The notes beneath the pieces were generated by a model. That model was not told the DNA's origin, searched no databases, and was given only the letters and a program-made list of their open reading frames with translations. A stretch of 50,708 bases of DNA, the filler included, from Porpidia crustulata (taxonomy: Eukaryota): the NCBI GenBank assembly GCA_964255105.1. It is 3 parts of 3 records of this genome, joined end to end, with 100 filler letters (N's around TTAATTAATTAA, not from the genome) between each part and the next. Parts side by side here need not be neighbours in the genome. Positions count along the whole stretch, not along the records: positions 16,994 to 33,804 come from CAXUWE010000242.1; 2 more parts are not named here. One strand, given 5' to 3'. This document shows positions 18,715 to 41,944 of the stretch, in pieces. Positions within the stretch are counted from its first letter, which is position 1. Each line of letters opens with the position of its first letter. Position numbers and translations under genes: made by a program.

Positions 18715-19285
18715 GTTTTGGAATCGAAAGGATTAAGAAGGAAATGGCCCTAGACGTTATTGAAAATCTTTGGAATAGGTTAGGGTAGTGGTTATAGAAG
18801 ATACTTTGTCTCCTTTTCCAGAATCCTTGTCCTATGCCCTCTAATCGTGATTTCCGTCACCTTTAGATCAGCTTTGTCTCATTTGGTGAGATTAGGATCG
18901 TCCGAAGATTTTCACGCATACCGTGATGATGAATCGAATTTGAATATCGCGTGAATGATGCCTAGCACTAATCGATTGGACTTTTTTTTTCACTTCTTTG
19001 CACGGACCAAACAGACATCACAATCGTCTGAGATGAAAGACACGTTACCACAAATCTTTCCTCACTTGCGCAAGTTTCACTCCTGGAACTTTTACAGACC
19101 TTTGGGAAACCTTGATCGTGTCTTCTCTCACCATCAAATAGGTAAGCTGTGATTCTTTCAAGCATGCTTCTTCATCTTGAAGCCTGGCTGATTTGAATCC
19201 AGTAACTTAGTCTGCTTCAATCACAAATTATCGGAGTCTTACCTTCGTGAAGTTTTCGTGAGATACACAACTGTCAATACACATA

Positions 19286-19866: not shown

Positions 19867-21260
19867 AATTATGTGATACTAGGGCCAATGTGGATCTGGA
19901 TTCAGATGGTATTCTCCACTTCAGATAGTGAAAAGTGATGGTGAGACATGCTTGGATCCGGCATAGCGAATATAAAACCCAGTTTCCCCGAATCGCTTCT
20001 GTTTCTCGGAGTATCTTCTAGTCTGGTCAGATCTTCAAAGATATGGTCCAGAAGCTGCGCAGTATACTGCCAAGAAGATGTTGAGATTCATCGATATTAG
20101 CTATGTTCTCCAATGTTTCGTCCTTGACGCAAATCCAATAGCAATCTCCACTTCAAGCCGACGTGCCGATATCACAATAACACCGATCAGGAATTGTGAC
20201 AAGTATGTTTCCACAATCAAAAGTGTTATTCGCTGAGTCGCTGTCCTCTGACTCTCCATCAACACCCAAGGGAGAATCCACCTGAGATCGCGCCAAGTGT
20301 ATTTTAGGTCATGTCAAGTAGGAAGTGCACACTATAGTCTGTACTTAAACCCTTCGTGGCCATGGATACCTATTGTCCTACACCAGTAACTGATATCCAG
20401 CGAGTGTAGGGGATGAGACTTTCTTTCCGTCAGGAAAAACACATAGTCTAATTAGTAAGTTGAGGAGAATGTCTTCACCGCCTGTAAGTATCTTGGGGCG
20501 TACATATCCCTCTTCTTACTTGTTCAGTCCATAAGTGTTCCCTCCTAGAAACGTCAGATCTGTGAGGAGATGCCTCAATTGGCAAAGTAGTAGCATTCAA
20601 CCAAATATAACGAACATCGCCAAGGTGTGATCATTGAGCAACGTGTAGAGACTTCGAATGCTTCGTCAAGAGAACTCCGGGGCAACAAGAGACCGCGTTT
20701 CCAAGGTAATGTGCACTCAAGATGGTGATCTAATATGCACTCACCGTTCATTAGCAGCAGCCACGTCCGATATCGGCGGGATCGTCGTAAGAATAAAGCT
20801 GATCGAAGAACCGATTGCGTTTACCGAAATGTCCTCTGGGTCGGAAATTGGCTCAGTCAAGCTGGCACTCGTTAGGGAGTTGCATAAGATCCAAGGCGGA
20901 AGCAACGCTTCAAACTGTGTACAAGTTCCTTAGAGCCAGGAAATCGGTAGTCGTGTTGCCAACAGCAGGCGAAGAATCTAGGGCAGCCCTGGCGGCGAAG
21001 GCAAGCGTTACGAAGCGTAGATGGAGGTATCTGGAAAAGAAAAGTAGCCCGACCTCGCGACTCGCGAATGGAACGCTGCTGCGACGCTTTAGTTGGACAA
21101 GTCGCCACATCAAGCGAACGGAAATCCGGCGACCACGATTTCTGGAACATCCAATGATGATCGAATCCTAACGCATAAGGTTGCGGAAGCACAAGACAGG
21201 TTCGAGTTTGGTAAGGAGGAAGTCGGAAAATGTAGACCACGAACCTTAGGACATTCTCAG

Positions 21261-21290
21261 ATTACCGCGAGGCTAATTACCGCGAGGCTA
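21261..21290 (+). repeat. Perfect 15-bp tandem duplication ATTACCGCGAGGCTA x2
   Basis: Two identical adjacent copies are read directly. Confidence 0.85.
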
Positions 21291-22593
21291 ATGACCATCT
21301 GCTGATGACCATGACTTGTAGTCCGGCAGAGGAGAGCGACAGTGACTTTAAAGATTTTAAAGTAAAAGATAGTGCGGATGTATCTTCAATCCAGTGTTAT
21401 GTGAGAAAAGTCGATGACTCAATGATTAGACTTGCTCTCCAATACTGATATGATCTCGCTGGTCGCAGAAGTAGAAGAGCTTCAACATGAGTTCCCATCT
21501 CCAGCCGAATAAACCAAGATCTCACAGCAGCGTCATGTCCCCACGTAGATATTGTTCCTATCTCTCCTATTCCCAGCATCCTTCCTCGTTTCCTTCCATA
21601 CAAGCACCGCGACTAGGCCCAATGACTCGAACCACCAACTAGCCTTACGAATTTCTTCACTATGCCCCAGAAACCCCACTGACGCTGGGGCTCTTCCTGT
21701 TCTTTCCACTTCCCATATGATGCCGGAGGTGTCGTAAAATGTTTCTTAGGCGACCGGGCGCGTTTGGGCGATTTTGCGAGGAGAGGGGTTGATGGACGCG
21801 ACATGGTTGCCGGATAGTTTTTTTCCCCCCAGCTCGTTTCCGGAGTGGATGGAGATGTGTTGGATTCGGTGGGATTGTCCGTAGGGAAAGGATTCAAGAG
21901 CGGAAAACGGGAAACAAGTGAGGTAGAGGAATGTTAGCTCGTACGTATAACATCGGGTATCGGAGAATATATATAGGTCGTCGCATAGACCGTCACACCG
22001 AGTCATTGCGCAGCCTTGAGCAAGATAGATGTGTAGCGCGAGCTAAATTCGCGCAGTCGCACAAATCTACACGTAGCAAATGCATAATGTTACGAATGAG
22101 TCAATAAAAACCAATAATTTGATTAGTTCCGCCTAGTCCGTGCACACAATGGATATTCACCGAGGACGCTTTTGATGGGACGAAGAGAACATGAGGCTCA
22201 AATGAGTCAGATCGAGCAGTAACGTTCGTTAGTCAATTAAACAAGCGCGATGCTGTATACTCGTATCCACTGCCAGTTCGGCCACCATGCTGAGGGTTAG
22301 GGTTATATGATCGACTGATGCGGGAAATCCATACCGCCAAACTCGACTGTACCTGTGGAAAACATCACCTGAACGCTACAAAGTCAAGTGATAATGAACG
22401 AAATACACGGATTTGATCGAGACACGGTTAGGCAACATCGAATCATCGAAAACTCTTCTTGAAATAATCATTCAATCTGATTGATGTTAATGAGGATCGA
22501 ATTTCGCGTATGGATTTTCTGCCCCCGCGTGCGTGGTTGGATTATAAATTATAAAGCTTCCGAGATAAAATACAGAAAGAACTTTTCCAAAAT

Positions 22594-23158
22594 CTACTTG
22601 GGATATTCATGAGGATTCTCCTCATAGTACCAACTCTGCTGTTCCTCCGTCAGAAGATCCTTCGGGCCCAATCCAAACCATTCTTGAAAGCACGCTTCGA
22701 TCCTGTTAAATTGCTGGATACAAGCCCGCAGATCCTGAGCAAAATCGTCCTCCGAGGTAGTCCGTACACCATGAAGCAACCAAAAACCAAATTGACTGGG
22801 AAGATTCGGCGCACAAGCTCCAGCCCTTGGATCGCATACGATGGTTTTGTTCCGGCAATACTTCATGTACTCGTCCAACTTTGCTTCGTCGATGTCGCCA
22901 AGATATTTCGAAGAGAGAATGGTCTCTGGTAGAAGAAGGAGGTAGACCCCATTTGGCGACACGCTCCTTGGCGTTAATCAAAGATGAGATCCTCGACCGA
23001 CGAGCTGATTGAAGAAGGGAAGAGGAAAACGATTGAGATGAGGAAAGGGACGAGTCCGCATTCTCCAAATCCATTATACCCCTAGTTGGCGAGACGTAGG
23101 GCTTGAGGGGTTCCTCTTGTATAGTGGTGCTCCTTGTTTTGCGACATCGGAAGTCCAT
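22594..23158 (-). CDS. Hypothetical protein; 5' structure unresolved (possible frameshift or relic)
   Basis: ORF 22594-22962 looks protein-like (FGFWLLHGVRT...CFQEWFGLGP) but starts at GTG with no ATG near its 5' end. An overlapping ATG ORF begins at 23158 in another frame. Confidence 0.35.
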
Positions 23159-23655
23159 AATGGTAATTCATCACGGCTGATCGCAATAGCAGCGACAGCA
23201 GTGACATAAAACTCTGTGAAGGGTGTGACTATCACCGAAACTAGGAGGATCTGAGCCGATGGATTATGGACTCGAGTGGCTAAGGTATTTGAGGAAGAGA
23301 CGTATTTATGTTCGTTTCATGTCATGGGTCCATGTAATAAGCCTTGTTTCGATCAAACATTTTTCATCTGTTGTTTCAGGGAAGGTTGTGAACAAGCGAC
23401 GGAATTGGATCATGGGTACCTATGTAGGTAGCTAGATGCCTCGCTAGCTTCAGCTTGGTTCAACGAAGAGAAAAGGGGAGTGCGGGCCGGTTCCCCCTAC
23501 AATCTTCGACGACGGTGATGACCAAGACAAGAATCAAGCGAAGCTAATGCCATCGCAGCACGCCAAGGCGCTCCGAGAGTATCGTAGAAGCTTTTTTTAG
23601 CATTACTCTTATATGTATATACGTATCGTACTTGGGGTCGAGCATATCCTTCCTC

Positions 23656-26600
23656 TCACCACTCCGATCCCAAATCGCTATATATGATAGCAACCTCCCC
23701 CTTCCTCGGACACAGGAATATACCATCGGCCGTAGCCTGACACAAGTCCAAACTCTCGGCATTGACCCAGTCTCGTGGAAGAAAGAAATGACGGAGGAGG
23801 GTACTGGGCCCTTCGGGCGTCTGTATCCGCCACGAGCACACCCAGAATGACTCGTCCATGAAAACTAGGCGACCATTGCTCAGTACTTCCAAGGGACGTT
23901 CGATGGAGGAGGAGATATGGGATGGTATGGGAATGGACAATAGGGTTTGGGCTTCTGCTGTACCGGAGGGTTTGGCAAGGGATACGCTTTCAAGCACGTG
24001 AAGGCGGTTCGTACGTCTTCCGTGTTGCCGAGATTTTGCGATGAAAAGTATTATGAAGGCTTTGCTGTGGGATATGATCAATTTGTCAATGGTCTCGTGA
24101 CCGCCGTCTAGGTCAAGTTGCGCTAGCTCCAAAGGCTGCAGATCCATGCTGCCATCATCAGTATAGCAAGGAGATGCATATGGAAAGGGTTCGATCCGCC
24201 ACTGACGACCCCTCTCGAGTGTGCTCCAGGTGTAAGCGGTCACTGAGGACGGCGAAAAGGCAAGAAGGCTCCCGGGGTCCAATGGGTGATTGGCCCACGT
24301 GACAGGCCCCTGCGATGAAGAGTTGTAGGTCCCACACACAGAACGTCGCTTTATCGACCATAGCTGTGCTGACTCTGGACTGGCGATCAAGACAAAATTG
24401 GAGTTAGGACTGATAAGTAATCGGTGCGCTCCACCCTTTTGAACATTGAAGCTTTCGTTCATGACGGAGCGAATTTCCCATTTGTGGTCTTTCTTCTCTC
24501 TTGCCGTATTGACGACAATACGTCCTCCAAGGTCTACAAAGGCAAAATGTATCCCATCCTCTGCCCAAATCAGATGCTCGATGATCATCTTGGCCTGGGA
24601 TTTTGCTCCTTGGATTTTCTCTGCATTGGAAATGGTTTCTAATTCCACAATACCGACGGCATTACCAATGCACAATAGATCGCCCTGACGTCGTGTCGAG
24701 AGCGCTGTGATAGGGACAAGACTCTGGACATGCGATTCCGAGGTATTGAACGACACGCTCTTCATGCTCTCGGCCCAAGTATCGGTATCGTGGCTCTGTT
24801 CATCCATGTCGGATATCCTGATTAGGGAGTTTGGTTCCCAGACATTGCAATAAGAGCCTCTGATATCATAGAATCGTCGACCGTCGGGGCTGAAACATAC
24901 GGCTGTGATCACATCTTCAGACGAAAGTTGGTAGATGAGCTGGAAGGTATGAAAGCTGTACAGTTTGACAGTGCCGTCGACGTCGCTGGTCACGAAGAGA
25001 GCTCCATTAGGATTGATATCAAGTCCAGAGGGGGTAGCTTCGGATGTGTCCACCTTCAACTCTTGATGCGTTTGTTCGAAGGGATGCCATTTGAACACCG
25101 CCCCGTCGATGTAGATACCGAGTACTTGGCCATTCCGCGGATGCCACCGCACGAAACTGACTCCGGTCCACGATTTACGGGAAGGATGGCTGGTTTGCAT
25201 TCTTCTCTTGCATCTATTGATCAGTCCTGGTGACTTCAGAGACCAAACGGAGAGAGGATAGCCACGGTATGCAATCGCAACCTGAGTCATATCCGGATTG
25301 AACGCCATGTCGTTTGGCGAATTTGGGTTTGTACCGGGTATTGTGTTATCTTCTCGAAAGATGGCGGAAGAACTTTGCTGCCAGCCATTCCCTGTGTCGC
25401 CAAGGTGAAATTTTGTAACCTTCCGAGTGTCCAGACCTGCGACGAGGATAGAGTCGAGCTGAGAAAACCTGAGGTCTAAGGGTCGAACATTGGGAGGACT
25501 AGCGGTGGCATAGAGAAGCTTACCCTCTGAAATGTTCCAAATCTTCGTAGATTTGCTGCCATATGATGCAAGCATCTCGCCGTTATCGCTAAAGCATATA
25601 TGATGGACGTGCTCTTGGTGAACAAATGTCCGAATCTCCTCAAAAGACCGTGAATCCCAAAGAGTTGTACTGCCTACAGAGGTCAAGATGGCAAGGAAAC
25701 GGCCAAAGCACTGTATCAGCAATGCTTCACGATTTGTCCCGACCGACAGTCGGGCAAAGCAATCGTCCCACTCAGCTGTCGACAGCCCTTCAACACGAAG
25801 TGGAGAGGCTGGCGACTGTCCAAATTGCCGGTAGATCCTTGAATTAGTGGGGCAGAATTGAGGTATGTATTTGTAAATGGCATTCGGGTCCTGGAGGAGA
25901 TGACCGCCAAATTTTCCCACGATCTTCAGAAGGTCGGTAGCCCAGAGTTCAAGGAGTTCAAATTCTGCCAGGTGAGAGTTGAGTGATAACCTCCTGGCGT
26001 AAAAGCTCTGGTATTGCCGAACAAAAGCCGTGACATGTTGAGATGTGTAAACGAGTGCTTTCAGCTCGCCCATCATGGCCAGTGCCTGAATCCATGGAAG
26101 AACGAAACGTCCGGAGAAAAATTTAGTCATCAGTTCCAAAGCATGCTCGGACTCTTCCGAGCCATGACTGAGATGCCAGCCCCACGACGATGCCGAATAG
26201 GCGTATAACGGGGGCCATGGCTCTTGGGATAACGTATCACGAAGGTTCCGATGGATGAAGATGGAAAGCGTTGTTTTGAAGAGTTTTTCATGCGCAGCTT
26301 CAGCCTTCAAAAGGAAAGAAATCCCGGAATTACTGACGAGATACTCGCGAGCAGTGTAATGTACCAGTGAGACGTAGTCCTTACCGTCGCGTCTGTCCAC
26401 TTTGACGAAGTGACCACAGACTTGGTTGATGGTGTCTGCCAGATCGAGAATTCTGGGATGCTCGGGCCTCAACGCCTCTAACAACTCATCCGTATGGAGA
26501 GACTTTCTCGAATACGTTGTCCATGCCAATATCGAACGAGCTAATGACACATCAAAAGGTTTTTTAAGCCTGTTGATCGCACTGGACATGCGTTGGTAAA

Positions 26601-28756
26601 GATCCTCCATGCCGGAAGGGACCTCATCGAGAACTTGCTTAATGTCTCTTTCCGTGTGACACTGGGTTATTTCTTTGAGCACAAGGTGCACCCATAGAAA
26701 GGATCCCCCGGCTTGACTAACTAATTTATTAACTATCTGCTGGCGGAACTGTTGACTCCCACGCATGAATGGCTTCTCTGATGTAGCGTAGTGCCGGATA
26801 TCACTCTCATTATTGTCTAAAGACGCTGAGCGGACTGTGATGCTTGCAGCGACTCTATCGAAAGCCACTTTGATATCAGGGATTGGTCGGCTCGTCACCA
26901 GGACATGAATGATTATTTGTGATGAGGCGAGACTTTTGAAGTGCTCAATGATAGCCAATGATGAATCAGATTCATCAAGAGCATCGATAACCCAATATAG
27001 AGGAGCATTATTCACTAGACCAAAAAGAGTTGAAACGAAGATTCGTTGCCAGATGCTCCAAGAATCCATTTTATCGAGCCTGACGCCTTTGTCGTTCATG
27101 ATCTTGAGCATTTCGTGCAAGTCTGGTACGTCTTGCGCTGTCTGAAACGCTAAAGATCCCAATAAATCGCCCGGAGATTGCTTTGCCGAGTCTCCGTGCT
27201 GGAAGAAAAAGTATTGGCAAAGACGACCTTTCTTGAGAAAGTGGTTGATGAGAAACGAGGCTTGAACAGATTTCCCGGAGCCTGGCTGAGCATAGAGCCA
27301 TAGAACGTTAGACTGCAGCGAATGCTCCCACTTTATAAAAACCGGCGTGTCCAATATACCACTACAGGTACCTTCCTTCCATCGATGAAGCTGAGAATTG
27401 AGATCTTCCTCCGGTGCGCGAGACACTCCTAGTAATTTCTCCAGCGTTCGTGTGCTTGATTTCGACCTCGAAAGCGAGGCTTCGGAAGCTGTTTGCTCGA
27501 TTTAGGTTTTAGTAATCCTGGATGTGGGTTGGACTTACAAGTATCCTGGTACCTCGAGACGAAATTGCTCAGAAGGGAAGAGATACTTTGGTAGTTGGAG
27601 TTTTCTCGACTGTTAAATTTACATACGTCATGATGGTTTGCGTTCAATGGCTTTATGATTTCGCCAGGATAGCCAAGGGATGACGAATCTTTATTGACTA
27701 TCATCTTCATGACATTAGTCCAATATCCGGCGGCTTCTGGAACCATTGGTCAGACTTACCACGTGTTTTAAGGCAACCGAAGTCTCCAGTGTTTCGTAAA
27801 AGGAGACTATTGACTGTATACGACCAGCTACATCTCGAAAAGCATCATTTAACTCCGTTATTGACGGAGATTTGCGGCTAAGCTCTGCGATGTACGCTTT
27901 CGGACTGTGACTGAATATCGAAACAGACAGCAAGCGATTCAGATAATCTGCGAGACTGTTGCCGCGATGAGGTGTGGAAAGGAACAGCACAGCACGGGTC
28001 TGCGAGATGATTTGCTTGTATTCATCGTTGCTCTGGCCGTTGATGTAAGCCTGTGACAGTTCCGATCAGCAGAGCTCAATACACGGTCCGCTTTCTGATA
28101 GCTGATCTTCGCCCTTGACGTTCGAGTACGATCTATCACATATTGATGATCGGAATTTGATCAACGAAAGCCCCGTCACAGGCAGCGCACCAACCTTCTT
28201 GAAGACAAGACCACCCATCGAATGGACAACGAAAATAATTGGTCTCTGATATACGAGTGAGCAAAAGCTATTCGAATCTGGGTCAAAGCTTCCCACCTTG
28301 CCGATATCCAGATTATTTCGATCTTCAATATCTCGTCCGAATTTCAAATGGAATAGCAAATCCCTTGCGAAGTCTGAGATGCTCGATACGTTATTTGGTC
28401 CTGTGTTCATATAGTCGGCATTGTAGCCAAAGCTCATGATCCTTGCGCTGCTGATCTCAGGTTCGAGCGGTAGCCATAACTTTGGCCAAAATCGATTCGA
28501 ATCTCCATCGTAGCACCACGTCTTCTCACTAGATCCGCCTAATCCGTGCACAAAGATGATATCCACCGAGGGCGCTTTTGATGGAGCGAAGAGAACGTGA
28601 AGTCCAGAAGAATCAGATTGAGCGTTTGCAATACGTTCTCTACGATCAGTAGTGGAGTTGGAAGGACTATTACTCGTGGGATGATGTAAATGTGGCGGCT
28701 AATTGATGGAGGATCAGCTTCGTAGATATGCTTACGGTTCTTTAGCATCGTACCAT
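23656..28756 (-). CDS. Fungal NLR-like protein: N-terminal alpha/beta hydrolase (SesB/PGAP1-like) + NACHT + WD40 beta-propeller
   Basis: Hydrolase motifs DIIFVHGLGGS, IMSFGY, VHSMGG, FLSTPHRG and NHHDVCKF splice in frame to the 1256-aa ORF. That ORF has Walker A AQPGSGKS, Walker B WVIDALDES, FLWV, LVHYTAREYL and C-terminal WD-type repeats (FSDNGEMLAS, FSPDGRRF). The start is tentatively a one-codon ATG exon at 28754-28756 (alternative 28827-28829). Confidence 0.88.
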
Positions 28757-29201
28757 AACGATGGATGTGAATCACATAAGGAAAGTGCTTGTACAAGTTG
28801 ACAAGCAAGGAATTTAGCACCCTAACCATCAATTTCCTCGAGGCTTGACTTAACAGAACCCGGGACGTTGCGAGGATTGACTGCAATTTGAAGGCTTCAT
28901 CAACGATAGGATAGGCGAGGCTACCGTTACTACAGCTAGATCTCACGTAAAGTTGGGCTGATATGCAAGAGAGAGTCTGCGCCACGAAGCGGGCGGATGG
29001 GTGATTGGTGTTTACACCTTGGTACTACCTTACCTGACGAAGATGAGTTGGCAATTGGACGAGGCTGCTATCGTCGAGCAAGTGAAAGGAAAGGTCACTT
29101 CAAAACATCAAGCGATACACCTGTCGCTCGCTCAAGGCTACCCCAGCCGTTAACATACCAAGTGCAATACGGAATTGGCTGTTCTTGCATCCTACAAAGC
29201 A

Positions 29202-32114
29202 ATGCAGGCCCCAACGGACATACACATGGTGCTTGGTCTTGAGCAGGCAGCCTCCGTGCAGAGTGAGCTTGGGGGTAACTTCCCTCTGGATGATGCTGTA
29301 CTCGAGGGTTTGTTAGTCAATAACAGAGCCTCATATGGTATTGACAAGCTATGTAGTATTGCCTTCAGGGACGAGAGTCATCTCGGCTGACAGCTTTGGA
29401 GCCTCTGCTTGGTCCACCACTGCACGCATCGATGCAGTCACAGAGCAAGGTGCGCCGGTTGGGTTTTTCCTCAAGGTGCGACCAGGCAGCTTCCCAAGCC
29501 TTTGCAAGAGGCGAGCTATAGACTGCGTTGACTGATGTCAATGTCGTGCAGTGCTTAGCGACAGAAGAGGGTCGAGCCCAACTCGAGGGCGAATACCATG
29601 CGATGTGCGAGCTACGAAGAACGGTTTCTCATTTGGTACCGTCGCCAATAGCGTGGGGACGGTTCCGCCTCGCTAGCCCGCCAACATACTTTTTCCTCAT
29701 AGAGTTCGTCAACGTTAGCAACAAGCTCCCTGACCCTGTTCAGCTTGGCCTTCGCCTCGCGGAACTACATCATAAGAGCGTCTCTCCAACCGGCAAATTT
29801 GGTTTCCACATCACAACCTACGATGGCAATCTTCCACACAATGTTGAATGGAACGACAGCTGGCCCGATTTTTTCACCAAGCTCCTACAAAGTGCTTACG
29901 AACATGACAAAAAGGCTAATGGGCTCTGGGAGGAGCTGGAAACGTTATTCACACAGGTCATCGATACCGTGATACCCCGATTGCTCCGGGCCTTGGAAGC
30001 AGATGGAAGGAAAATAAAACCGTGTCTGATTCATGGCGACCTTTGGGAAGGAAACTTGGGCACTGAGTACAACACGGGAAAGATCTACATCTTCGACTCA
30101 TGTGCCTATTATGCTCATAATGAAATGGAGCTAGGTCCCTTAGCCGTGGATCACCATCGTCTCCGAGCCAAGGTCTACAAAAGAGAATACCTGCGTCACT
30201 TTGAAGCCAGTGAGCCGGTCAATGAGTGGGATGATCGCATACGTTTGTATAGTCTGAAAGAGCTCTTCATTAATGCTGCCCTTTTTCCAGGTTCGCAGGT
30301 CAGGGCTAGGTTAATTTTTACCAACATACAATCGGAAGACAACGCAAGCTTACATGTAATCTAGGGCCTACGAAACCCTCAATTACTTGGTCTGCAAATT
30401 CCCTAATCCACATACCGTCGATTTACAGAAATCGCCTGCATGGGATGTCAAGTCGGTTAGTAGTGCTACCGTCGAGCTCTTCACACAGGAACATGGATAC
30501 CAACAATCAGATCTTGAGCCCCTAGATCTCGATGCTCAGGCCGATGAGAAGTCATTGAACAAGGGAAACGGCCAGCCTTTTCAGGAAGCGCCGCGCTTGA
30601 ACAACGACAACACCCCACTACTCTGTTCACAGCAGACGGGAGCAGGGTATGGCATTTCCAAGGAAGACATTGCAAAACACGCTACCGACGATGGTGACCC
30701 GGCTCATATTGCTGAAACCATCCAGAGCCTTGATATAGTGGCGGATGACCCTTGCATAGAAGCCGTCGCCGTCCAAGAGGCTGAAATGAATGTTCTTTCC
30801 ATGACCTTTGGCACTGCTGATTGGGAAGAGTCTGCCTTGAAGCTTGTTCACAGTGTCAGTCCAGCCTGGGAGTCGAATCCAGGCAGAGTGGAAGTCGTTC
30901 GATTCACAGACGGCATCATGAATACCGTTCGTCGTTTCCACATTACTCTGGCTTTTCTTAATGTGGCTGACTAACATCCATAGCTCCTGAAATTGACCAA
31001 AAAGGTCCCCGGACGACCTGACAGCATAAACGAGGAAGAAGCCGTACTGTTGAGGGCCTATGGCAAGGATTCAGACATCCTTGTTGACCGGGACATGGAA
31101 GCAGTAACACACGCATTGCTTGCAGCGCGGGGACTTGCGGCACCACTCCTTGCTCGCTTCCACAATGGACTGCTATACGGGTACACGCCGGGTCGTGTCT
31201 GCAGTCCCCAGGATCTTCAAAAAGAGATGGTATGGCGTGCTGTTGCAGCCCGGCTAGGTGAGTGGCATGCTCGTCTTCCTCTGCCACTACTCGATGTCGT
31301 GGAATCACAACATGAGCTTGCTGCAACCAACGCTTCGGATGATCAAGGTATTATCGGTCGCTCTCAATCTGCAAATATATGGAGCGTGATTCGGAAATGG
31401 ATATCTGCGCTTCCAACTCGCAATGAGACGGAAGAAACCCAGAAGACGGTCCTCCAGAAAGAAGTGGAAAAGTCTTTTGGAGCATTAAATCATGACAGAG
31501 GCCTTGGACATCGCGGTGTAAGTACCAATCAGACTTAGTTGGTGATCCAGCCTGACTCAATATGTCTGTAGCTCGTGTTGGGACACTGCGACCTCCTCAC
31601 CGCAAATATCATTCTTCCTTTGGAAGGAAACACGCCGTCGCATGAATCTGATGGCGTTACGCAAGCCAAGACTCTCAAAGAAAGAATCCGTTTCATTGAC
31701 TATGAATACGCTGTCCCATGCCCGGCAGCCTTTGACCTTGCCAATCATTTCGCAGAATGGGGTGGCTTTGAATGTGACTATAACTTGTTGCCAACGAAAG
31801 CGGTGCGACGAGCTTTCATCAAGGAGTACGTTGGAAGCTACAGTCAATACGCTTCTCTTCCGAACACAACGTCAGGCTCCGTGGTCGACGATCTGCTTGC
31901 TGATGTCGATCGATATCGCGGAATGCCAGGGCTTTACTGGGGTGTCCAGGCCCTGATACAAGACGTGATCTCTGATATCGATTTTGATTGGGAATCGTAT
32001 GCCGCTGTCCGACTGGCAGAGTACTGGGCCTGGCGAGCAGAAGTAGATGGTTCGCGGATAAACGAAGGGAAGGAGATGCCACTGAGAGAGCAAAGGTGGG
32101 CTCAATCGGACTGA
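29202..32114 (+). CDS. Fusion of a fructosamine-3-kinase-like (FN3K) domain and a choline/ethanolamine kinase domain, ~873 aa, 6 exons
   Basis: Exons 29202-29307, 29357-29475, 29552-30309, 30365-30926, 30984-31517 and 31572-32114 are all GT-AG and phase-compatible (2622 nt). FN3K motifs: GKFGFH, LIHGDLWEGN, YYAHNEMELG. Ethanolamine-kinase motifs: FTDGIMN, LLRAYG, HCDLLTAN, FIDYEYA, FDLANHFAEWGG. Confidence 0.85.
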
Positions 32115-32581
32115 AATCGGCTCTGCAACGATCAATCACGGCTGGGTAATATGTGAATGTGGGCTGTGTTTCCTTGTCATCTTCCTTGGACATGTCTGTT
32201 CTACTTCTCTCCGTTACGACACCTGTATGAGCCTACAGCTCCTGGTGGTTGACGATTATCCAAAGCCTGTAGCAACAAAAGACCAATCAGAAATGCTATC
32301 CCAATCAAGCGAGAGCCTTCGGGTCGTAATTCACACAAGATAAGTAGTATTGCCTGAATGAGGCAATTAGTACGCGACCCCGCTTCTTTGGGCCATCGGA
32401 ATAAAAGACTTTTCATTCTTTCTCATTCTCATTCTCATCCATGATGCATCCATGATGGCTACCTTCTTCTTCTTGGGTCAGATCCTTCGCATGAATTTCT
32501 TCATCCACTCTCCAAGGTCCGACCAGCAGCAAGTAAGATCCCTTGTCATTGCGGGGCCAATCCACATCTTCGCAGCCTCAA

Positions 32582-33804
32582 ATGTCTGTCCCACCAAATG
32601 CTGAGTCGGGGAAACGCTGCATCGTCTATGGCACCTTTGACCTCTTCCACGAGGGCCACAGAAGACTCCTACAGCGTGCACGTGCGCTGGCGTCTCACCT
32701 AACGGTAGCAATCTCCACGGAGAGCTTCGACCTGACCGAAGGCAAGCTCAACATTCGCCAAGGCCTTGTGCAACGTATTCACGCAGTGGAAGCTTCTGGG
32801 TTCGCAGACGAGGTCATAACAGAGGAATATTACGGCCAAAAGTCCCACGACATCCAGAGGCTGAAGATCGATATCTTGGTCGTTGGGAGCGATTGGACCG
32901 GGGTTCACGATTACTTGCGCAAATACTGCGAAGTTGTCTATTTGGATCGTACTGCGGGCATCTCAAGTACTCAATTACGAGGCGAGCTGCGTATAGGAGT
33001 GGTGGGCTGTGGTGGTGCTGCTAAGACATTCGTCCATGAAGCAAGACTCGTGAGCGGAGTACGCGTCGAAGCAGTATTCTCGCCTTCCGAACTACGCTCA
33101 CGAGTTTTTGCAAACGAGCACGGGGCACTCCGTGTCTCGGCTACCTTCGTTGACCTTCTAGCAGCAGTAGACGCAGTGTATGTCGCTTCACCGCACTTAA
33201 CGCACGTGCCCTACACCATTCAGGCTCTGACGGCAGGGAAACACGTCCTCTGCGAGAAACCTCTCTGCTTCACCAAGCGCGAGGCCGAATATTTGTACGC
33301 TCTCGCATCAGAGAAACGCCTCATACTCCTCGAAGGCATCAACACCGCGTACTCCCCCTGCTTCCAAAGGATCGTTTCGGCCGCTGAGAGCGGAAAGATT
33401 GGAAAATTGTACGGGATATTCGCCACTTGCACCGTCCTCACACCGCCGAAAGGCAGAGATTACGACAAGACACAAGGCGGGGGGAGTATTTCCAAGCTCG
33501 CCAGTTATCCCTTGCTCGCTATTATTAGAATTCTTGGCATGAGCGAGATGCAGAGCGTCAAAGTGAAGTCCATCTACGATGCCGAATCAGGCGTCGACAT
33601 CTTCTCCCGCATCGACATCGCCTTCAACGACGCCATCGCTACGGCCACAGTCGGTATCGGCGTACAAGCTGAAAGCGATCTCGTCATAGCGGGGATCAAA
33701 GGACACATCTACGTGCCCGCACCATGGTGGACCGCTGACTCGTTTGAAATGAGATTCGCAGATCCGGCGCGGTGTGAGAAGGTGCAGGTGGAGGCGGGGG
33801 GAGC
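32582..33804 (+). CDS. TagD-like (glycerol-3-phosphate-type) cytidylyltransferase fused to a Gfo/Idh/MocA oxidoreductase; intronless, 3'-truncated
   Basis: N-terminal domain YGTFDLFHEGH (HxGH), VGSDW and RTAGISST. Then a Rossmann motif IGVVGCGGAA, DAVYVASPHLTH and GKHVLCEKP. The frame is uninterrupted up to the contig end. Confidence 0.9.
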
Positions 33805-33904
33805 NNNNNNNNNNNNNNNNNNNNNNNNNNNNNNNNNNNNNNNNNNNNTTAATTAATTAANNNNNNNNNNNNNNNNNNNNNNNNNNNNNNNNNNNNNNNN
33901 NNNN
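33805..33904. other. Artificial contig spacer N44-TTAATTAATTAA-N44
   Basis: Identical to the first spacer. Confidence 0.98.
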
Positions 33905-34351
33905 GTTTATTAGAGGTTTTTGGGTTTTGGATGGTTTGGGTGTTTGTTTGTGGGTGAGCAGAGGGAACGGGGGGGGGAGGAGAAAGTGGTCTTGGTTGCG
34001 CGCTCGTGTTGATGCAATTTATTCAGATGGCATGGTTTTTACGTTGGAGAAACAATTCGTTATGCTGGATGCTATGTATCGTAATGCCTCCCGTAAGTAT
34101 GCCGTGGTCATGATGCCGTATCTACACCTCAGTCGCCGTTCCCCTTGCACTGTCCTTTGTGCTTGCCGTGGTTTTCCGGATCCGGATCCGGATCCGAAGG
34201 GCAGCCTAGCAGACAGAATAAGTGTTCAGAAAATGCCCGAAGAAAATTCAAATGGTCGGGTCAGGTCAAGAGAAGAAGTGGGAAATGAAGTGGTTTTTAC
34301 TTTGGGCATGCTCCTTCCACCGGACAGGCCCGGCACATTCGTCTTCTCCGT

Positions 34352-35960
34352 TTACGCGACGGCTTGTTTCGTACCTTGAGAGAGAGGGAAGAATTGGTCG
34401 AAGCGTCCGGCCGGGTCGTATCGCTGCTTGATCTTTTGCAGGCGCGCGACGTTCTGGCCGTACACGGTTGCGAGTGGTTCGTCTCCGAATGCGAAGTTGA
34501 TGTAGCTATGGAAACGCGTCAGTAATTTAGTTACATCTTGGTTTGCAGGATCCGAGAAAGACAGGCTAGAATATAATCTGAGACTTACGTGCTATTTGCG
34601 GCCACATTGTCGGTACCTCTCCACAAGTCGCGAACCCTGGAACCAAACGCCTCTGCGACTGGATCCAGAGTCGCGTCCGAGTACCATGGGATGACCAAAG
34701 CGTTGAACTTGACGGTGTGGCGGAATGCGTACGACGAAGACGAATCCGGTAGCATTTGCGCCTTTGTTAATGAGTAGTATTCCATCAAAACGGCCGACAT
34801 CTGGGTGCCGGGGTTTTTGAGGAAATTGACATATTCGTTATACACGGCGCGCCAGGTCGCGGGGTCCATTTGGTTTAGACCGGCTCCGTAAGAGGGCTTG
34901 CGCATGCCTTTGACGCAAAACGAATCGCTACCGTCGTTCAGATGGTCGTAGGTGACAAATGAGCTGGTATCCACAATCGGGCCAACGGCGTAGATTGAGG
35001 CAAACGCGGCTTTGTACTGGTCCACGGTTCCTCCGGCGTAGAAAGGAATTGCAACGACAGCAGGTTGGCCTTGGTTGGCAAAGTACAGGAATATAGCCAT
35101 GGGAGGTTCAAGAACCAGATTATTAATTGCTTTAACCAGGTCCTCGATCTTATCGTTAGTAAAGACCAGACTGCCAGTGTAAGCGCCGCTTGAACCAATC
35201 GGAACTTTGTAGGACTTCATGGTGGCTGAGGTGACAATGCCAAAGTTGGGACCTGCACCTCTGAGCGCCCACCAGAGGTCGGTTTGAGAGGCGTCTACTT
35301 TGCTGAGCTTGCCATCGGCGGTAACGAGGTTGACGGAGAGCAAATTATCAACACCCATGCCGTAGAGACCCATGAGGCGACCAAACCCACCACCTAATAG
35401 CGCACCAAGAGTCCCGACGCAGTTACAGTTGCCGGTAGGGACTTGGACGCCGTTTGCGTAGGCCGCTGTAACAACGTCGGAGATTAGCGCTCCTCCTCCG
35501 TAGGTGACTTCAAGTTTGTCGGCGCTGAAAGTCACGGTGCTCAGGAGTCGCAAGTTGATGACTAAATCTCCCGCGCCAATGTTGAATGTGATAACCCAGG
35601 AATGGCCGCCGTTCTGCGCGAGAAATTTGATGTTATTTTTCACGCAGTATTGTACCTTGAAGTGATTAGCACTGCGGTATGTGAACATGGGACGTAGATA
35701 AATCCTACAGTAATAGCAACGTCGCTTTCTGTAGCGACATTGACCACCGTGCTAGGGTTGGGCGCGTCAAGTTCACTCCATCGCGGATTGTTGACCGATG
35801 TATGTACAACTGACGCCTTTGACGACAGCAGCTTCGGGAGTTCTTTGTCGATTTTGCATGACTGATCACAGCTAGCAGTAGCTGGGGCAGTCTGTGGCAG
35901 CGCACTGGCAAGAACCAGAGGCAACAGTGCAGGAAAAAACCAAAGGCTTAAGAAGAACAT
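34352..35960 (-). CDS. Secreted FAD-linked oxidoreductase (FAD_binding_4 + BBE, VAO superfamily), 3 exons
   Basis: Signal-peptide-like MFFLSLWFFPALLPLVLASALP, NGGHS (covalent-FAD His), GNCNCVG, DLWWALRGAGPNFGIVT, and last exon YINFAFGDE...RLQKIKQRYDP. TAA at 34352-34354. Confidence 0.9.
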
Positions 35961-37482
35961 GTTTGCTGTACAATTAATTCCACGTGGGGAGAGCAAGGTA
36001 ATATATACAAGGGAGCGTCACCCAGCCGGGCCAGCCACACAGTCAGTGCTATCCGGCGCTTTTTCCTCCCCTAAGGTCCCTAGGGGTCGCCGGTAGTGAA
36101 TGGTGTCAATCACTCTGCATTCACTAATACCCATTAGCCGAGCAGCCGACCTCCAGTAGCTGCTCATTCCAAAATGGGGCGGATATTGGTCTATCATTGC
36201 GCCAAAAAGGTCCAGATTGAATTGATTGACCGTTTGTTTAGTCTTGTTGCCTCTTCGTCATCATGGTAATTCCCGTCAATAGAGTATTGTTGATGAACAG
36301 AGCATGGTCTGATCAAGCAGATCTTGGTCAATGTGCTGATAGTGCAGCTCAAACTGGTTCTGGTCGGAAACAACATACTTGGATATCTCGCTCACAGACC
36401 GAGGTTGACCGCTGTATGTCAGAGTCGTTGGCGCTAGCCCCCAATCAATTCTAATTATACGAACTCTTCCAAGTACCGCGCTGACCAGTAGCATTAACAT
36501 GAGACACAACCTGAGAGGATGCGGAAATACAGGATACGGCGGTATTCTCGAGGCACAGGTTGGCAAAGGTGATTTTAGGGGAATATCGCGGGGGCCGCGG
36601 TAGGAGGCAATCTAGGTAAGCGAACAGGCTATTACTAACAGCTATCTAGGGGCCTTAATCGTACCAACCACCACAAAAGATGTCCACGAGGTCGTTGTCA
36701 GGGACGCCAGATCTCCCCGCATGGAGGCGCAACAAAAACGTGTTCAAGGTCAGCATTCGTCTTGGCAAGAGTCCCATTCGCCCAAGTCTACGGCCGAGCT
36801 GATCACCTACTCACCTTGAACGCACCTACAAGCCACGAGATCGAGATTGCCCGTGGAAAGGATAGCCCGACGAATAGTGCTTTGGATATTCTCTGGGAAA
36901 ACACATCGGTGATCATAATGCGCGAAAACGAATGTGTTTCGCGTCCCCAATTTTCCCCTTTGCGATTTCTCACCTCATGATTGAGAGCTTGTTCGACTTG
37001 AAACCATTGAAACATGCGACGTCGGACTGGCTTACAAGGCAAGGCGGTCAGCGGTATCGAAAGTAACAAGAGTGCCAATTGCGTTAACAAAGGTGGAGAA
37101 GGACGACCAAGGTACAACAGCTATTGAAGCTGTTCGGGGATGCTTCCCAAATGATATTCGCGCGGAGACGACCTGTGCTTCATTGGAGTGTCTGCCGAGG
37201 AAGGATTCAACCGGCGGCAGAGAAGCGCAAAAGGCAGCAGTGACTTTACAAGAAAACCGAGTACTATCTAAAGATAGTGAATACAAGGGCGTATTTGTCT
37301 GTCTTTGCAGAGGTGTAAGCCTGTATCGGAATTCTGCCGATGTTTCTAGATCTACAGAGATGTTCTTAGATATCTCAACATTAGTCGCAGCTCGCTCAGG
37401 CGTCGGCGTGCTTCCTCAAATATGTCTCTATGCGACTCGCCTATCTGAATAAAAGCATTGCGTGAGATGATGCATCTAACGT

Positions 37483-38874
37483 TCAAGTATGGCCGTTTGT
37501 GCTCGGGGCTTCCCCTTCCCAGGAGAATACTACAATTGATAGCTCAGAAGCAGGGGGTTTCTTAATACTGACGAGCTTGAACCTAGGATCAGCATCATGG
37601 AATAGTTGTTTCCAATCTTTCGAGGTTCTCTCTTTGGCGTTCAAAAGCTCTTTCATCCCAAGGTCCAGATTGCTGGCAAATAATCTGTAAGCGTGTGAAT
37701 ATATGGGGTAGGCGATCAACGTACCGAGCCTGTTTCTCTTGATACGGGGTCATTTCACCTGGTTCCGGAAGACAGAACTCGTTCACTATTACTTTCGCGC
37801 CGTGTTTCAAGGCTGGTATTATGCTTTTCACAATTTTGAGCGCGTATTTGTCAGACCAGTCATGTAGTACCCATCGAAACAGGTAGATATCCGCGCCATG
37901 GACCGGTTGCTCGGTGAAGAAATCGTGGCCTCTGAATTCAAATCGACTGGCCATACCCTCTGGAACCTTAGCGGTCTTCACGACCTCGGGAAGGTCCTCA
38001 ACGATGCAGCGGATATTGGGGAAATTTTCCGCTATCGCTTGGCTGACAGTACCGTGAGATCCCCCCACATCAACCAATAAGCCATTGCCGACGCCTGCCC
38101 AATCATAGTTATCCACAATGTGAGAATGCTCAAATCCAGGTTTCATATGAAACAGCGTTATAGAATCTGCAAATCGCTTAGCGCGATATGGATCCTTACC
38201 AAGAGAAACGAAGAATGGGTCATCCGTGTTGTTCGCATACGAGAATCCAGTCTGTGAGGGCTCCTCCGAGCCGGGCCATTTTACCATCGCATCAATGGTA
38301 CGTGACGCGGCTGGCCAAAGTTCCTCACATAGCTGGCCGAGGCATGCTCTCAACATGGGAATTTCAGCAAGTGCTTTGGACGCCGGGGTATGGGCTACAA
38401 CGCCCTTCCGCGGTTCTTTGAAGATACGATCAGTCATAGCAAAATGAAGCAATCGGCGGAGATCGTCTTCATTTTGCCCACAGCGCTCTGCTATCTCAGG
38501 AAATGTTGTTTCTCCACCGACAGGGAAGCTGGATGCAATGTTGAATCGATAAATAGCTTGTACCCCTAGCAAACCATTGTGCTGCAAAAGTATCAGTATT
38601 GCGCCAGACCTCTGGCCGTATCTCATACCGCATCAGTAGCTTTATTTATCAACGATGGTATTGGTCCGAGGGCCAAAGCCTTAAGCTCGTCCATTGCTTC
38701 GAGGAGAGCATTCTGAGATGATTGGGCAGCATGCGTGAGCAGAGAAATCTGTGGAGGTGTATCGAGATCCCATGAGGGGGCTTTGAGGCCTTGAGACAGT
38801 AGATGTTCTTCGATGTTGGCAGTCTCAATCTGGATCTTTGACGCTAGTTCCGCCATCCTACTTATGGGAGCCAT
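37483..38874 (-). CDS. SAM-dependent O-methyltransferase (fungal secondary-metabolite, Methyltransf_2 type), 3 exons
   Basis: ATG at 38874 (MAPISRMAELA). Motifs LVDVGGSHG, HDFFTEQPV, RWVLHDWSD and NAKERT. Confidence 0.92.
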
Positions 38875-39817
38875 TCCCAATATCTTCCTGGCCGCTTGCC
38901 AAATTCCCTTGGGAATGAAGCAAATTCCAGACAAGAAGAGAGTTCTTCTACAGGCGCGAGTTACGATCGTTGCCAAAGACACACGAGATCTGGGCGTTGA
39001 TGTCCATGCCTGCGTGTCAGTGCAGAGACCTAGACAAGAGCCAAGAAGCTTATGGTGTATTGTATGTATAGCTATACAATCGATTACTTGTTCGAGAAGC
39101 TAGCTGTAAGCTGTAATCAAGTATTGTAGGACGCTCTTCTAGCTTGTATACTTCTTGGCTGCGTAGTTACAAATGGGTCCAAGAGTGTAGGAACAGAATA
39201 ATAGTACTAATGATTTTGTGGAGGCAGTGCTTGTTGCGTTGACTAGGGTAGCTTTTAGGTACCTTAGTGCGCTGATAAATCTATACTAAAGGGGACCTTG
39301 GGGCGCTCTGAATGACTGGCAGAGGATGACTTACATTGGAGAAGCGGCACAGTCAAAGCTTGTTGCAGGAATGATCAACTTTTAGCTGTGGTCAGCAAGA
39401 ATCCTGCTGGAGGATACATAAGCGGTACAACAACAGGCAGCTGACATCAGGAGGGAGGGTAAGAGTAAACATGAATTACAAAAATACTTCGTCTATTATG
39501 GTATACTCAATACTCTAGCTTACTATCGAACGACATGCGGAAATCAAGCAACGAGTGGGATTATTCTATTATCATATCATAGTCCATAATTGCGAATCAT
39601 GGTTGTTGGGTCTTCCATGAGAACTTTCCGACATTTCCAGATTCATATTATCTATCAGATAGATTCAGGTCTTGATGGTCGGTGTTGTTTCTTTTCTGAA
39701 GGAAAAGAAAAGAAGCACCCAAGAAGAACCCTCGGGGTTACGCTATCTCATTTTAGAAGAAGCGATATGGTCCTGTCACGAATGATATCGGACTTTCACT
39801 GGGCCATCTACCTCTAG

Positions 39818-41944
39818 TCAACCTCCGTTGATCAGGACTTGAACGCTCTTTTCCCTTCTGGGCCAGGGCACGAAAAAGTCCTTTGCAATTTCAACATTAT
39901 CCGTTGTTGTTTGGAAAAGCGTCATACGATGTCCAAATCGACGAATAACTGCTGCTATTGCAATGTGTAATTCTGCGTAGGCTAAACTAGAGTACCGTAG
40001 CATCTTGTCAGCAAGGTGTCGAGAAGCCAAAATGGAGGGTATTATTTCCTCCACATATCATGACGATGCAGGATAATGAAGACGGAGTTCTCAGAAACGG
40101 AGAAAATTCTTACTTGATGCCGAGACACTGCCGGCTCCCTTTCGAAAACGACATTAGGTAGCGGTCAAGGTGGCGGTTTTCAATCCAGCGTTCAGGGATG
40201 AATGTTAGGGGATCTGGGAAGATATTCGGGTTCAGATGGACAAGCGCACAAGTCATACCGACTGGTGTTCCAGCCGGAATCTTCCACATCACACCATCGT
40301 TGTTCTTGGAGTTCGATTTGAAGTACATAGGTTCTTGAGGCGAAATGCGTTGAAGACGTTGGCAAACACCATAGCCAAGGCGGAGACCTTCCGACACCAC
40401 AGCACTGTAAGATACGATTAGCTGATTCTTTCCACAGTGTCTCTCGTGGTTGAGCAGGCAGTGACTTATCAGGTACGGTAGCCGCTCAAGTTTGGAACAG
40501 CTGGGAAGATCATCGGGGTCTGGGATAGCGGTCGTCATCTCGTCGTACAATAAAGATAGGATTCGAGGACTAGAGAGAACGTAGTACACAATCACGGATT
40601 GTACTAATGCGCTTTGTATCAGCATTCTCTAAATCGGGGTAGATGATGTATGTACACACCCCATGCAGTTGTCTCCGTGCCAGCGGATACTACAAGTGCT
40701 CCCTCTTGCGCAAGCCGATCTACCGATTTTTCTGGTTCTGGGAGATCTCCTCGCATCAAGTTTTCGAAGATTGTGACATGCTCATTGTGATGATCTTTCT
40801 GCTCAGCGACTCTCTTTTTGATATCGAGGATCTGATTCTTCATTTCCTATCATAACAATAAGTCAGATCACATATGATGGAGGGTTTGGACAAGAGACCT
40901 GGCGCCACCGTGCAAGATGTTCTATTTCAGTGTTTCCTTGAAACACCGAAAGCCTAAGTTCGTGGCATTAATTTAATTTTTGTTGTAGAAATGGACACAC
41001 TGACCCAGCAAATTTCTCCATGAGAGGAACAACCCATGGCAGATGTTTCACAAAGGCTGCAGCTCGAAATGCGAATGCAAATGCTCGATAAAAAGGTGTT
41101 TGAAAATCAGGCACTTGAAGAAAGTTGTATGACGTTGAGAAGGCATATTCGGCGGCAATATCAGTGCTCAAGCAACTGAAAGCCATGGACAGTGGGACAG
41201 GGCGACTTGAGCTTTCGTATTGCTCAATCTGGCTGCAAAGGAGTTGTACGTTCCTGACAATAAGAGGTTCAAGCCTGGTGATGGAAGCCTTGGAGAAAAA
41301 GCTGCTTAAGGCATTACGGCGCAGTCTGTGCAGATCATGCCCGAGTGTTCCAGATACACTCTGAGCTTGATCAGAACTTGGTGACAGACCATCATATTCA
41401 GAAGCTCCGAATCTCTCACCTCTGGAACCCTGTACTGTAGTCAGATATGTTCTAGCAAGTTGTGGAGATACCAACCCAAATTGCCTGGCTGAAAATTTGT
41501 AGCGATCTCGTTTCGAAGAATGACCGCCATATAACTCCTTGATAAAATCTGGGTCATTTATGTGAAGCTCGTCGGGACTTATGCGGACCAAAGGCCCTTC
41601 AACAATGGTAAGTCCTGCTGAATTGGAAATAGTGCAGTCATCATACGATATGGTAAACGTGTGATTACCGTAGCTCAAAATCTCGTCCATGGAAACATAC
41701 CATATTTTTCATGCATCTTTGCAATTTCAAAGGTGTACTGGCCTCCCCTAAGACCATCATGGTAAAATTCGAATAGTACTGTCGAAGCTGCCAACCTTGG
41801 CCCTGGGAATTTTGCTAGAGGGTGGAAGAACAACCGGTAAACCACTTTGCTGATTATCCATACCAATACTAGAATGGTCACGGCTGGGATCCCCGCAGAC
41901 AAGGAGCACACTTGTGAGATGCTGTGGATGGATGGAAAAGTCAT
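39818..41944 (-). CDS. Cytochrome P450 monooxygenase (resembles the CYP58/trichodiene-oxygenase-like group), multi-exon
   Basis: N-terminal TM followed by [27 protein letters not shown] (I helix), EGLR (ExxR), PERW and [10 protein letters not shown] (heme Cys). Confidence 0.92.

Follow-up and report, generated by a model that had tools for sequence, protein, structure and literature searches.

The window analysed here is a stretch of 50,708 nt from Porpidia crustulata (GCA_964255105.1) and consists of three contigs, at 1-16893, 16994-33804 and 33905-50708. The 3′ end of the middle contig carries two co-oriented genes, which together encode four catalytic domains. Gene 1 (29226..32114, + strand) has six exons and encodes a protein of 865 aa, in which an FN3K-family (ketosamine-3-kinase-like) domain is joined to an ethanolamine kinase. 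Gene 2 (32582..33804, + strand) is without an intron, has 407 codons present and ends at the contig end; its product is a fusion of a TagD-type cytidylyltransferase and a Gfo/Idh/MocA oxidoreductase. The 467 bp between the genes (32115..32581) contain stops in all three frames and have non-coding codon scores. The middle contig genuinely stops at position 33804, and the letters that follow (33805..33904) are an artificial contig joint composed of N44, TTAATTAATTAA and N44; a linker of this kind also separates the first two contigs. Gene 2 therefore lacks about 44 C-terminal residues, judged by alignment, and a tblastn search with its closest protein as query (P0001, 451 aa, 89% identical) locates the missing C-terminus nowhere else in the window. 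The presence of the four catalytic domains at this locus is confirmed, well beyond chance. An earlier sequence-only reading had called these domains and both fusions, and the calls are borne out by Pfam matches and homologue alignments.

The exons of gene 1 (29226-29307, 29357-29475, 29552-30309, 30365-30926, 30984-31517 and 31572-32114, + strand) are separated by introns of 49, 76, 55, 57 and 54 nt, all five of which are of the GT..AG type. An in-frame ATG at 29202, eight codons further upstream, is an equally possible start and would add eight residues. The FN3K-family domain (29226..30407, + strand, aa 1-334) has an intact HGDLWxGN motif, and exon 3 matches PF03881 Fructosamin_kin in Pfam (3.9e-32, 112.1 bits against a cut-off of 22.4). 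Fungal FN3K proteins match aa 6-332 with 48-59% identity (BLASTP). The alignment ends in a helix, '...LVCKF', which is encoded past intron 3, and the homologues stop about 10 residues later. Retention of intron 3 would make FN3K stop at the TAG at 30362-30364; this was considered and ruled out, since homologues align through the post-intron helix. The full-length ethanolamine-kinase domain (30750..32114, + strand) matches PF01633 Choline_kinase in exon 5 (4e-20, 72.8 bits) and exon 6 (2e-29, 103.3 bits), with a cut-off of 29. Stand-alone fungal ethanolamine kinases of 410-450 aa match the protein from about aa 448 to its last residue. The exon model is thus supported by FN3K and ethanolamine-kinase homologues, which align through its junctions.

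Between the two kinase domains lies a linker of 114 codons (30408..30749, + strand), which matches no Pfam family and has no counterpart in stand-alone FN3K proteins or ethanolamine kinases. It contains no stop in frame, compared with 4 and 8 in the remaining frames, and its frame stays open in 90 of 20000 shuffles. The codon log-odds are +0.19 per codon in the linker, 0.13-0.18 in bona fide exons and at most 0.005 in two intergenic controls. Exon 4, in which the linker lies, has no Pfam match, and used as a query against 1.84 billion representatives it found 30 proteins. P0323 (278 aa), from a distant relative, matches exon 4 end to end with 27% identity overall. This single open reading frame (ORF) comprises the FN3K C-terminal helix, a longer and diverged linker, and the ethanolamine-kinase start up to the same intron position, so the fusion is present in at least one distant relative. 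In a rock-metagenome contig (run X2), a 1-base deletion at 30624 and a 1-base insertion at 30627 preserve the linker frame, and a second compensated indel pair is found in exon 3 of the rock-metagenome relative. The contig of run X3 has the deletion at 30624 only, without the compensating insertion. On the codon statistics and these comparisons the gene 1 fusion is judged to be real and older than P. crustulata, and its linker is fast-evolving and probably disordered. PF01633 is found in none of 49 long FN3K-containing proteins, and PF03881 in none of the 120 long ethanolamine-kinase matches listed; within these searches the FN3K-ethanolamine kinase fusion is thus confined to the window's lineage.

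Another domain combination was seen among the same 49 long FN3K-containing fungal proteins. Sixteen of them (in the range P0136 to P0166) contain an aldo/keto reductase domain (PF00248), and they come from Pseudogymnoascus, Aspergillus, Hypoxylon, Daldinia, Acephala and Viridothelium. Either a second type of FN3K fusion recurs here, or gene models have been merged repeatedly.

The ethanolamine-kinase half of gene 1 retains the Brenner motif (HxDxxxxN) and the choline-kinase motif (IDxEY...), both intact in the alignment. In a tree of 39 rows, built by a quick method with no mixture model, this half falls in a 5-row clade with three proteins and JMJ35_009613 of Cladonia borealis (support 99 in the Shimodaira-Hasegawa-like approximate likelihood-ratio test, SH-aLRT). 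C. borealis has a second, canonical ethanolamine kinase, JMJ35_008117, which falls in a separate clade. The second Trp of YWGxW, which presumably forms part of the head-group pocket in choline and ethanolamine kinases, is Gln in the window. Trp is present at this position in 116 of the 120 ethanolamine-kinase matches listed, and Gln or His in only four, all of them members of the paralogue clade. If this role of the Trp is right, the paralogue may accept a different alcohol. By its placement in the tree, the ethanolamine-kinase half is regarded as a native fungal gene that belongs to a divergent paralogue clade.

The product of gene 2 comprises a TagD-type cytidylyltransferase domain (32612..32989, + strand, aa 11-136) and a Gfo/Idh/MocA oxidoreductase domain with a Rossmann fold and a C-terminal domain (32987..33781, + strand, PF01408 and PF22725). 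Pfam identifies CTP_transf_like (7e-13), GFO_IDH_MocA (4.8e-22; the PF01408 score is 79.3 bits against a cut-off of 24) and GFO_IDH_MocA_C3 (PF22725, 2.6e-06). The best NCBIfam model for the N-terminus is TIGR01518, glycerol-3-phosphate cytidylyltransferase (8.5e-30), whose equivalog cut-off is not reached, at 103.4 bits against 165.4. The N-terminal 126 residues match PDB 1coz and 2b7l at about 6e-30, and gene 2 matches human ECT (PDB 3elb) at 3.1e-11. The TagD signatures HxGH (as FHEGH) and RTAGISST are intact, as is K55, which aligns to the TagD catalytic Lys K46. Among solved structures, the oxidoreductase domain matches PDB 4had (3.8e-22) and the nucleotide-sugar 3-ketoreductase KijD10 (1.8e-20). 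The domain has an intact EKP motif and, in its N-terminal Rossmann fold, a GxGxxA/G motif that reads GCGGAA where GxGRIA is usual.

A pocket-aligned position of the cytidylyltransferase domain is altered, and so is a second position. K44 of TagD is a basic position, which we take to have a specific role in that enzyme. At the position aligned to it, 85 of 85 prokaryotic rows and 14 of 19 fungal-clade rows have Arg; the window and P0001 have Glu, and P0002-P0004 have Gln. These five rows, the window and P0001-P0004, also carry Tyr or Ala at the position aligned to W74 of TagD, where the window has Tyr. The rows with Gln or Glu at the K44 position (the window and P0001-P0004) cover all rows with documented kinase linkage, P0003 being a row without linkage data. 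This replacement of Arg by Glu or Gln may point to a new substrate or to a weakened enzyme. Changes confined to the window at positions conserved in at least 90% are R145G, E293D and T372I, and R145G lies beside the Rossmann glycines. Gene 2 differs from a close relative at 104 bases in 1263 nt, and from P0001 at 44 of 408 amino acids. This suggests that gene 2 is under purifying selection, a rough estimate that assumes P0001 to be the protein of that relative.

The fusion family of gene 2 is large. A search with gene 2 gave 7979 significant matches among 8000 candidates, and PF01408 and PF01467 occur in all 120 listed. The best matches have 61-89% identity. Fungal orthologues with 56-59% identity are found in Hirsutella minnesotensis, Lecanicillium sp., Aphanocladium album and Oidiodendron maius (P0007 cluster), and are followed at 53-55% by Propionicimonas, Aeromicrobium, Microlunatus, Tessaracoccus and Pseudarthrobacter, of the Propionibacteriales and Micrococcales. 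In a genome scan the fusion was also found in Propionibacteriales (51-56%), many Bacillota, Akkermansia, Bacteroidales, Saccharibacteria and a Methanobrevibacter bin. Every row displayed by an Atlas feature search is a bacterial or archaeal cluster with this architecture. A metagenome scan with gene 2 gave no fungal contig; its matches were five bacterial loci of the fusion, with about 46% identity, besides generic oxidoreductases.

A careful tree of gene 2 (IQ-TREE, 59 rows, unrooted; supports given as ultrafast bootstrap/SH-aLRT) places the window, P0001-P0017 and Oidiodendron in a 19-row clade with support 100/100, of which five rows, the window and four named fungi, are known to be fungal. 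Its sister is a 22-row clade (87/80), whose 14 named rows are all Actinomycetota. The two clades are joined into a group of 41 rows (100/99), and a quick tree of 104 rows is concordant. In a 19-row full-length alignment of the fusion family, with a mean column identity of 63%, all ten fungal-clade rows have in common a 4-residue interdomain deletion and a short N-terminal extension. Since the fusion is widespread in prokaryotes and patchy in fungi, the economical assumption is that bacteria passed the gene to fungi, and gene 2 was likely acquired horizontally from a Propionibacteriales-like actinobacterium. Bacterial contamination or a chimeric assembly was considered and ruled out, because gene 2 shares its contig with intron-bearing genes, independent contigs bridge both genes, and named fungal orthologues lie on contigs of 0.1-1.0 Mb. 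The fusion also occurs in the Methanobrevibacter bin and in two Saccharibacteria genomes (L106, L153, L158), and the phyla are intermixed in the 104-row tree, where Bacillota require 11 changes. The gene thus moves between prokaryotic lineages too.

The prokaryotic neighbourhoods of the fusion are teichoic-acid or capsule loci in a Pfam scan of two metagenome and eight actinobacterial loci, which comprise 87 proteins; ORFs in high-GC loci were chosen with a GC3 filter. Glyphos_transf (TagF-like) lies shortly downstream of the fusion in five of the eight actinobacterial loci and in both metagenome loci. Further neighbours are LicD, GT4 and GT2 glycosyltransferases, IspD-like transferases, an ABC-2 exporter and a flippase. 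Locally built hidden Markov models (HMMs) were then used for a census of 71 loci with a full-length fusion ORF, after 14 of 85 candidate loci were dropped. A TagF-like gene is present in 30 of the 71 loci, a LicD-like gene likewise in 30, and either in 56, often directly adjoining the fusion; seven TagF ORFs and one LicD ORF were used as HMM queries and match by construction. Nine of the 15 loci with neither gene are cut to less than 11 kb. The TagF and LicD neighbours, together with the TagD-like domain, indicate that the ancestral role was the supply of a CDP-activated alcohol phosphate to TagF/LicD-type transferases. The prokaryotic product would be CDP-glycerol-like or another CDP-polyol, destined for teichoic-acid or capsule loci.

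The arrangement of gene 1 and gene 2 recurs in relatives. Two rock-metagenome contigs from separate studies, one of 11628 nt (run X2) and one of 6185 nt (run X3), align collinearly with the window over 29108-33804. Their identity to it is about 92%, with differences at 276 of 3297 and 104 of 1263 positions. The 11628-nt contig extends 1280 nt beyond window position 33804. Upstream, the relatives cease to resemble the window at 29108, which lies 118 nt before the gene 1 ATG, between gene 1 and an NLR gene. Large insertions and deletions in the relatives are confined to the spacer (32278-32469). They coincide with a short 'cattct' repeat and an ATG-rich stretch at 32418-32469, upstream of gene 2, and comprise a 64-nt segment swapped for 23 other letters and insertions at 32278-32282. 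In a third study (run X10), short pieces cover 26 of 30 bins.

Four of the seven exon-4 entries are co-resident with a gene 2 homologue, on contigs of equal size from the same source. These are P0322/P0352 with P0292/P0293 (259427 nt), P0323 with P0004 (35111 nt), P0324 with P0298 (48544 nt) and P0353 with P0304 (53979 nt); the match in size in these four assemblies shows residence on one contig, not spacing. The other three entries lie on contigs of 8287, 1235 and 1142 nt. In the four co-resident relatives, gene 2 is about 70-72% identical and falls within the window's 7-row sub-clade (100/99). These comparisons show the gene pair to be conserved in a small ascomycete clade.

The 259427-nt contig carries a degraded copy of both genes, which resembles the outcome of repeat-induced point mutation (RIP). 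Its gene 2 copy (P0291, P0292, P0293) lies in fragments, whose lengths are 382 aa and 49-62 aa. Between P0293 and P0001, 23 of 382 positions differ, and all 20 testable changes fit single C-to-T or G-to-A changes; in the degraded linker copy (P0322), 21 of 41 changes are of this type. This suggests either an earlier duplication of the two genes together or a loss of the block in that strain.

A joint CDP-alcohol pathway of gene 1 and gene 2 is plausible and is put forward tentatively. It is suggested by the conserved linkage, by the order of a kinase followed by a cytidylyltransferase, which is established in CDP-alcohol pathways, and by the paired residue changes. In this pathway the kinase fusion would phosphorylate a free alcohol, such as a polyol, a glycerol-like compound or an amino-alcohol, and the TagD domain would couple the alcohol phosphate to CMP from CTP, yielding a CDP-alcohol. 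The Gfo/Idh/MocA domain would interconvert keto and hydroxy forms before or after cytidylyl transfer, and the CDP-alcohol would finally be the substrate of a transferase that is not among the genes of the window. Both the passage of gene 1 products to gene 2 and the nature of the alcohol are inferences. A bolder extension, which we consider improbable, is that ascomycetes related to those of the rock metagenomes have made a bacterial teichoic-acid precursor enzyme the core of a 'third Kennedy-like' eukaryotic route. A two-headed kinase would there salvage a polyol or amino-alcohol, the residues would have been retuned (Arg to Glu/Gln, Trp to Gln), and the CDP-alcohol would serve to attach alcohol-phosphate groups to wall glycans, a decoration like that of teichoic acids, through a LicD-type transferase, or provide an unusual phospholipid head group.

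Several of these elements had been anticipated by the sequence-only reading. The synteny in relatives that it named as a check is borne out by the collinear rock-metagenome contigs and the four co-resident assemblies, the LicD-type transferase that it expected might lie beyond the contig break has a strong precedent in the LicD-like or TagF-like genes of 56 of 71 prokaryotic loci, and, as it stated, no described fungal pathway of such composition was found in literature searches. The gene 2 fusion is not a fungal novelty, since it belongs to a common bacterial family (7979 matches) that likely reached fungi by horizontal transfer. The suggested kinase partnership is without a prokaryotic counterpart, no such kinase being near the fusion in any of 71 loci, and nothing in the analysis supports Amadori-product salvage in particular.

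Other findings weigh against a joint pathway. In the census, a choline-kinase-like or FN3K-like gene was present in 0 of 71 prokaryotic loci within the fetched flanks, by home-made HMMs of limited reach, which derive from fungal sequences and could overlook distant bacterial kinases. No protein of the choline-kinase or FN3K type was found among the 87 Pfam-scanned neighbours either, so in its native setting the fusion enzyme does not depend on a dedicated kinase. The linkage is known from one sub-clade only (gene 2 at least about 70% identical) and could be an inherited neighbourhood. In Aphanocladium album, PWT90_08713, the only long FN3K listed, is far by locus tag from the gene 2 orthologue PWT90_01023. 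The relative with the 259427-nt contig has its RIP-like degraded copy of both genes. The window contains no gene for a TagF-, LicD- or CDP-alcohol-transferase, the contig ending within gene 2 and the downstream side, on which bacteria usually carry one, lying beyond it. The change of Arg to Glu/Gln and R145G could mean a weakened enzyme, not a new specificity.

The two genes might be neighbours by descent only, in which case gene 2 alone would make a CDP-polyol from central metabolites and gene 1 would be an unrelated tandem kinase, for example for ketosamine repair together with a second ethanolamine kinase for phosphatidylethanolamine synthesis. This is possible, if on balance doubtful. It is in line with the 0 of 71 prokaryotic loci with such kinases, with a linkage seen among fairly close relatives only, and with Hypocreales and Oidiodendron, which show no sign of a linked FN3K-ethanolamine kinase (0 of 49 long FN3K proteins and 0 of 120 listed ethanolamine kinases). 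It accounts less well for co-residence in six independent assemblies while the linker fell to 27% identity, and for rare pocket-aligned substitutions in both genes of the same lineage; the kinase-then-cytidylyltransferase order, known in general, also speaks for a functional tie. Gene 2 of the sub-clade could instead be a decaying or catalytically weakened relic of the transfer, in a cluster without joint function. An Arg invariant in 85 of 85 prokaryotic rows is Glu in the window, R145G, E293D and T372I occur in the window alone at positions at least 90% conserved, and gene 2 is fragmented on the relative's 259427-nt contig, with 20 of 20 testable amino-acid changes fitting single C-to-T or G-to-A changes. 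Against decay, gene 2 has no stop before the contig ends and preserves HxGH, the K46-aligned Lys, RTxGISST and EKP. Less than half of its base differences from the close relative alter the protein (a rough estimate), and intact orthologues persist throughout the 19-row clade. A relic is unlikely.

Gene 1 may also be viewed as two genes, with an open linker that is untranslated or alternatively used and an ethanolamine kinase that starts at the Met in '...AEMNVLSM...'. This in-frame Met lies near the point where stand-alone ethanolamine kinases begin aligning, and the donor sites of introns 1-4 are non-consensus. The linker, on the other side, scores as coding and is stop-free over 114 codons, and the FN3K helix and the ethanolamine-kinase start share one exon and frame in both the window and P0323, despite their differing linkers. 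A split of gene 1 is very unlikely. The joint CDP-alcohol pathway is the reading that we prefer among these.

The remainder of the window contains genes of other kinds. An NLR-type gene (23656-28698, minus strand) lies directly upstream of gene 1 and comprises an NPHP3_N NACHT domain (2.5e-41), WD40 repeats and an N-terminal hydrolase-like part. The Zalerion maritima model P0168 merges FN3K with NACHT, WD40 and PGAP1-like domains; with the NLR gene beside gene 1, this suggests that a neighbourhood of FN3K and NLR may be recurrent. Only short ORFs occur in the first 6.6 kb of the middle contig (16994-23600), and none of its 15 ORFs of at least 90 aa matches Pfam; the stretch is gene-poor or degenerate. 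The first contig contains a non-reducing polyketide synthase (about 3012-10338, minus strand) with SAT, KS, AT, PS-DH, two PP-binding stretches and a thioesterase, a tryptophan-halogenase-like fragment (460-1053), and a serine hydroxymethyltransferase (SHMT). This part (460-10338, 12258-13472) looks like a halogenated aromatic polyketide cluster. The third contig has an FAD_binding_4 oxidase, an O-methyltransferase, a P450 fragment and a gene with a fungal-rhodopsin domain (34588-45000), possibly a further neighbourhood for secondary metabolism.

Bacteria use CDP-activated polyols for teichoic acids and capsules, and mammals use CDP-ribitol in the glycosylation of dystroglycan. A putative bacterial CDP-polyol synthase, kept by fungi and in one clade kept beside a double kinase, raises the question of whether some fungi make CDP-alcohols beyond CDP-choline and CDP-ethanolamine, and what these would decorate. 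Resolving gene 2 would also give a function to the very common bacterial TagD-Gfo/Idh/MocA family, and gene 2 itself would be a clean example of a transferred gene wired to native genes. The literature searches found no paper combining glycerol-3-phosphate cytidylyltransferase with Gfo Idh MocA, none joining FN3K, ethanolamine kinase and 'fusion', and none characterising the prokaryotic TagD-Gfo/Idh/MocA fusion family biochemically.

The prokaryotic TagD-Gfo/Idh/MocA fusions of Propionicimonas, Aeromicrobium, Friedmanniella, Lachnospiraceae and Akkermansia have the same two-domain full-length architecture as gene 2, with 35-56% identity and the same catalytic motifs. They are annotated as 'Gfo/Idh/MocA family oxidoreductase' or 'glycerol-3-phosphate cytidylyltransferase'. 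In contrast, the fungal copies have the N-terminal extension and the 4-residue deletion, lie beside a kinase gene and not beside TagF or LicD, and in the window's sub-clade have replaced the invariant Arg. With TagD/TarD (PDB 1coz, 1n1d, 2b7l) the gene 2 N-terminus shares HxGH, the K46-aligned Lys and the RTxGIS(S/T)T-type motif. It differs from them in its fusion to an oxidoreductase, the K44-aligned Glu, the W74-aligned Tyr and a score below the TIGR01518 cut-off.

Bcs1, TarI/TarJ (which form CDP-ribitol) and the HS:5 pair of Campylobacter jejuni follow the same logic of a reductase with a cytidylyltransferase, a likeness of function and not of membership. They use an IspD-type transferase with an SDR or MDR reductase, whereas gene 2 has a TagD-type transferase with Gfo/Idh/MocA. 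The reductase, kinase and cytidylyltransferase of Streptococcus pneumoniae (gtp1-gtp3) are said, in a 2010 paper, to act on free triose or glycerol. By these reported activities, and likened by function, they would be the nearest precedent for a kinase joining such a pathway. According to PMC1391919, three genes are thought to encode the CDP-2-glycerol pathway of S. pneumoniae. For the C. jejuni HS:5 pair, PMC10918830 describes a reductase and a cytidylyltransferase that make CDP-6-D-glucitol, a CDP-alditol for a surface polymer.

The resemblance to the Kennedy pathway lies in both genes. In its C-terminal half, gene 1 is truly homologous to fungal ethanolamine kinases, and the TagD fold is common to gene 2 and ECT. 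Compared with ECT/PCYT2, gene 2 has one bacterial-type transferase domain and not a tandem, and carries an oxidoreductase. Compared with the ethanolamine kinase of the Kennedy pathway, that of gene 1 is a divergent paralogue, in which the pocket-aligned Trp is replaced.

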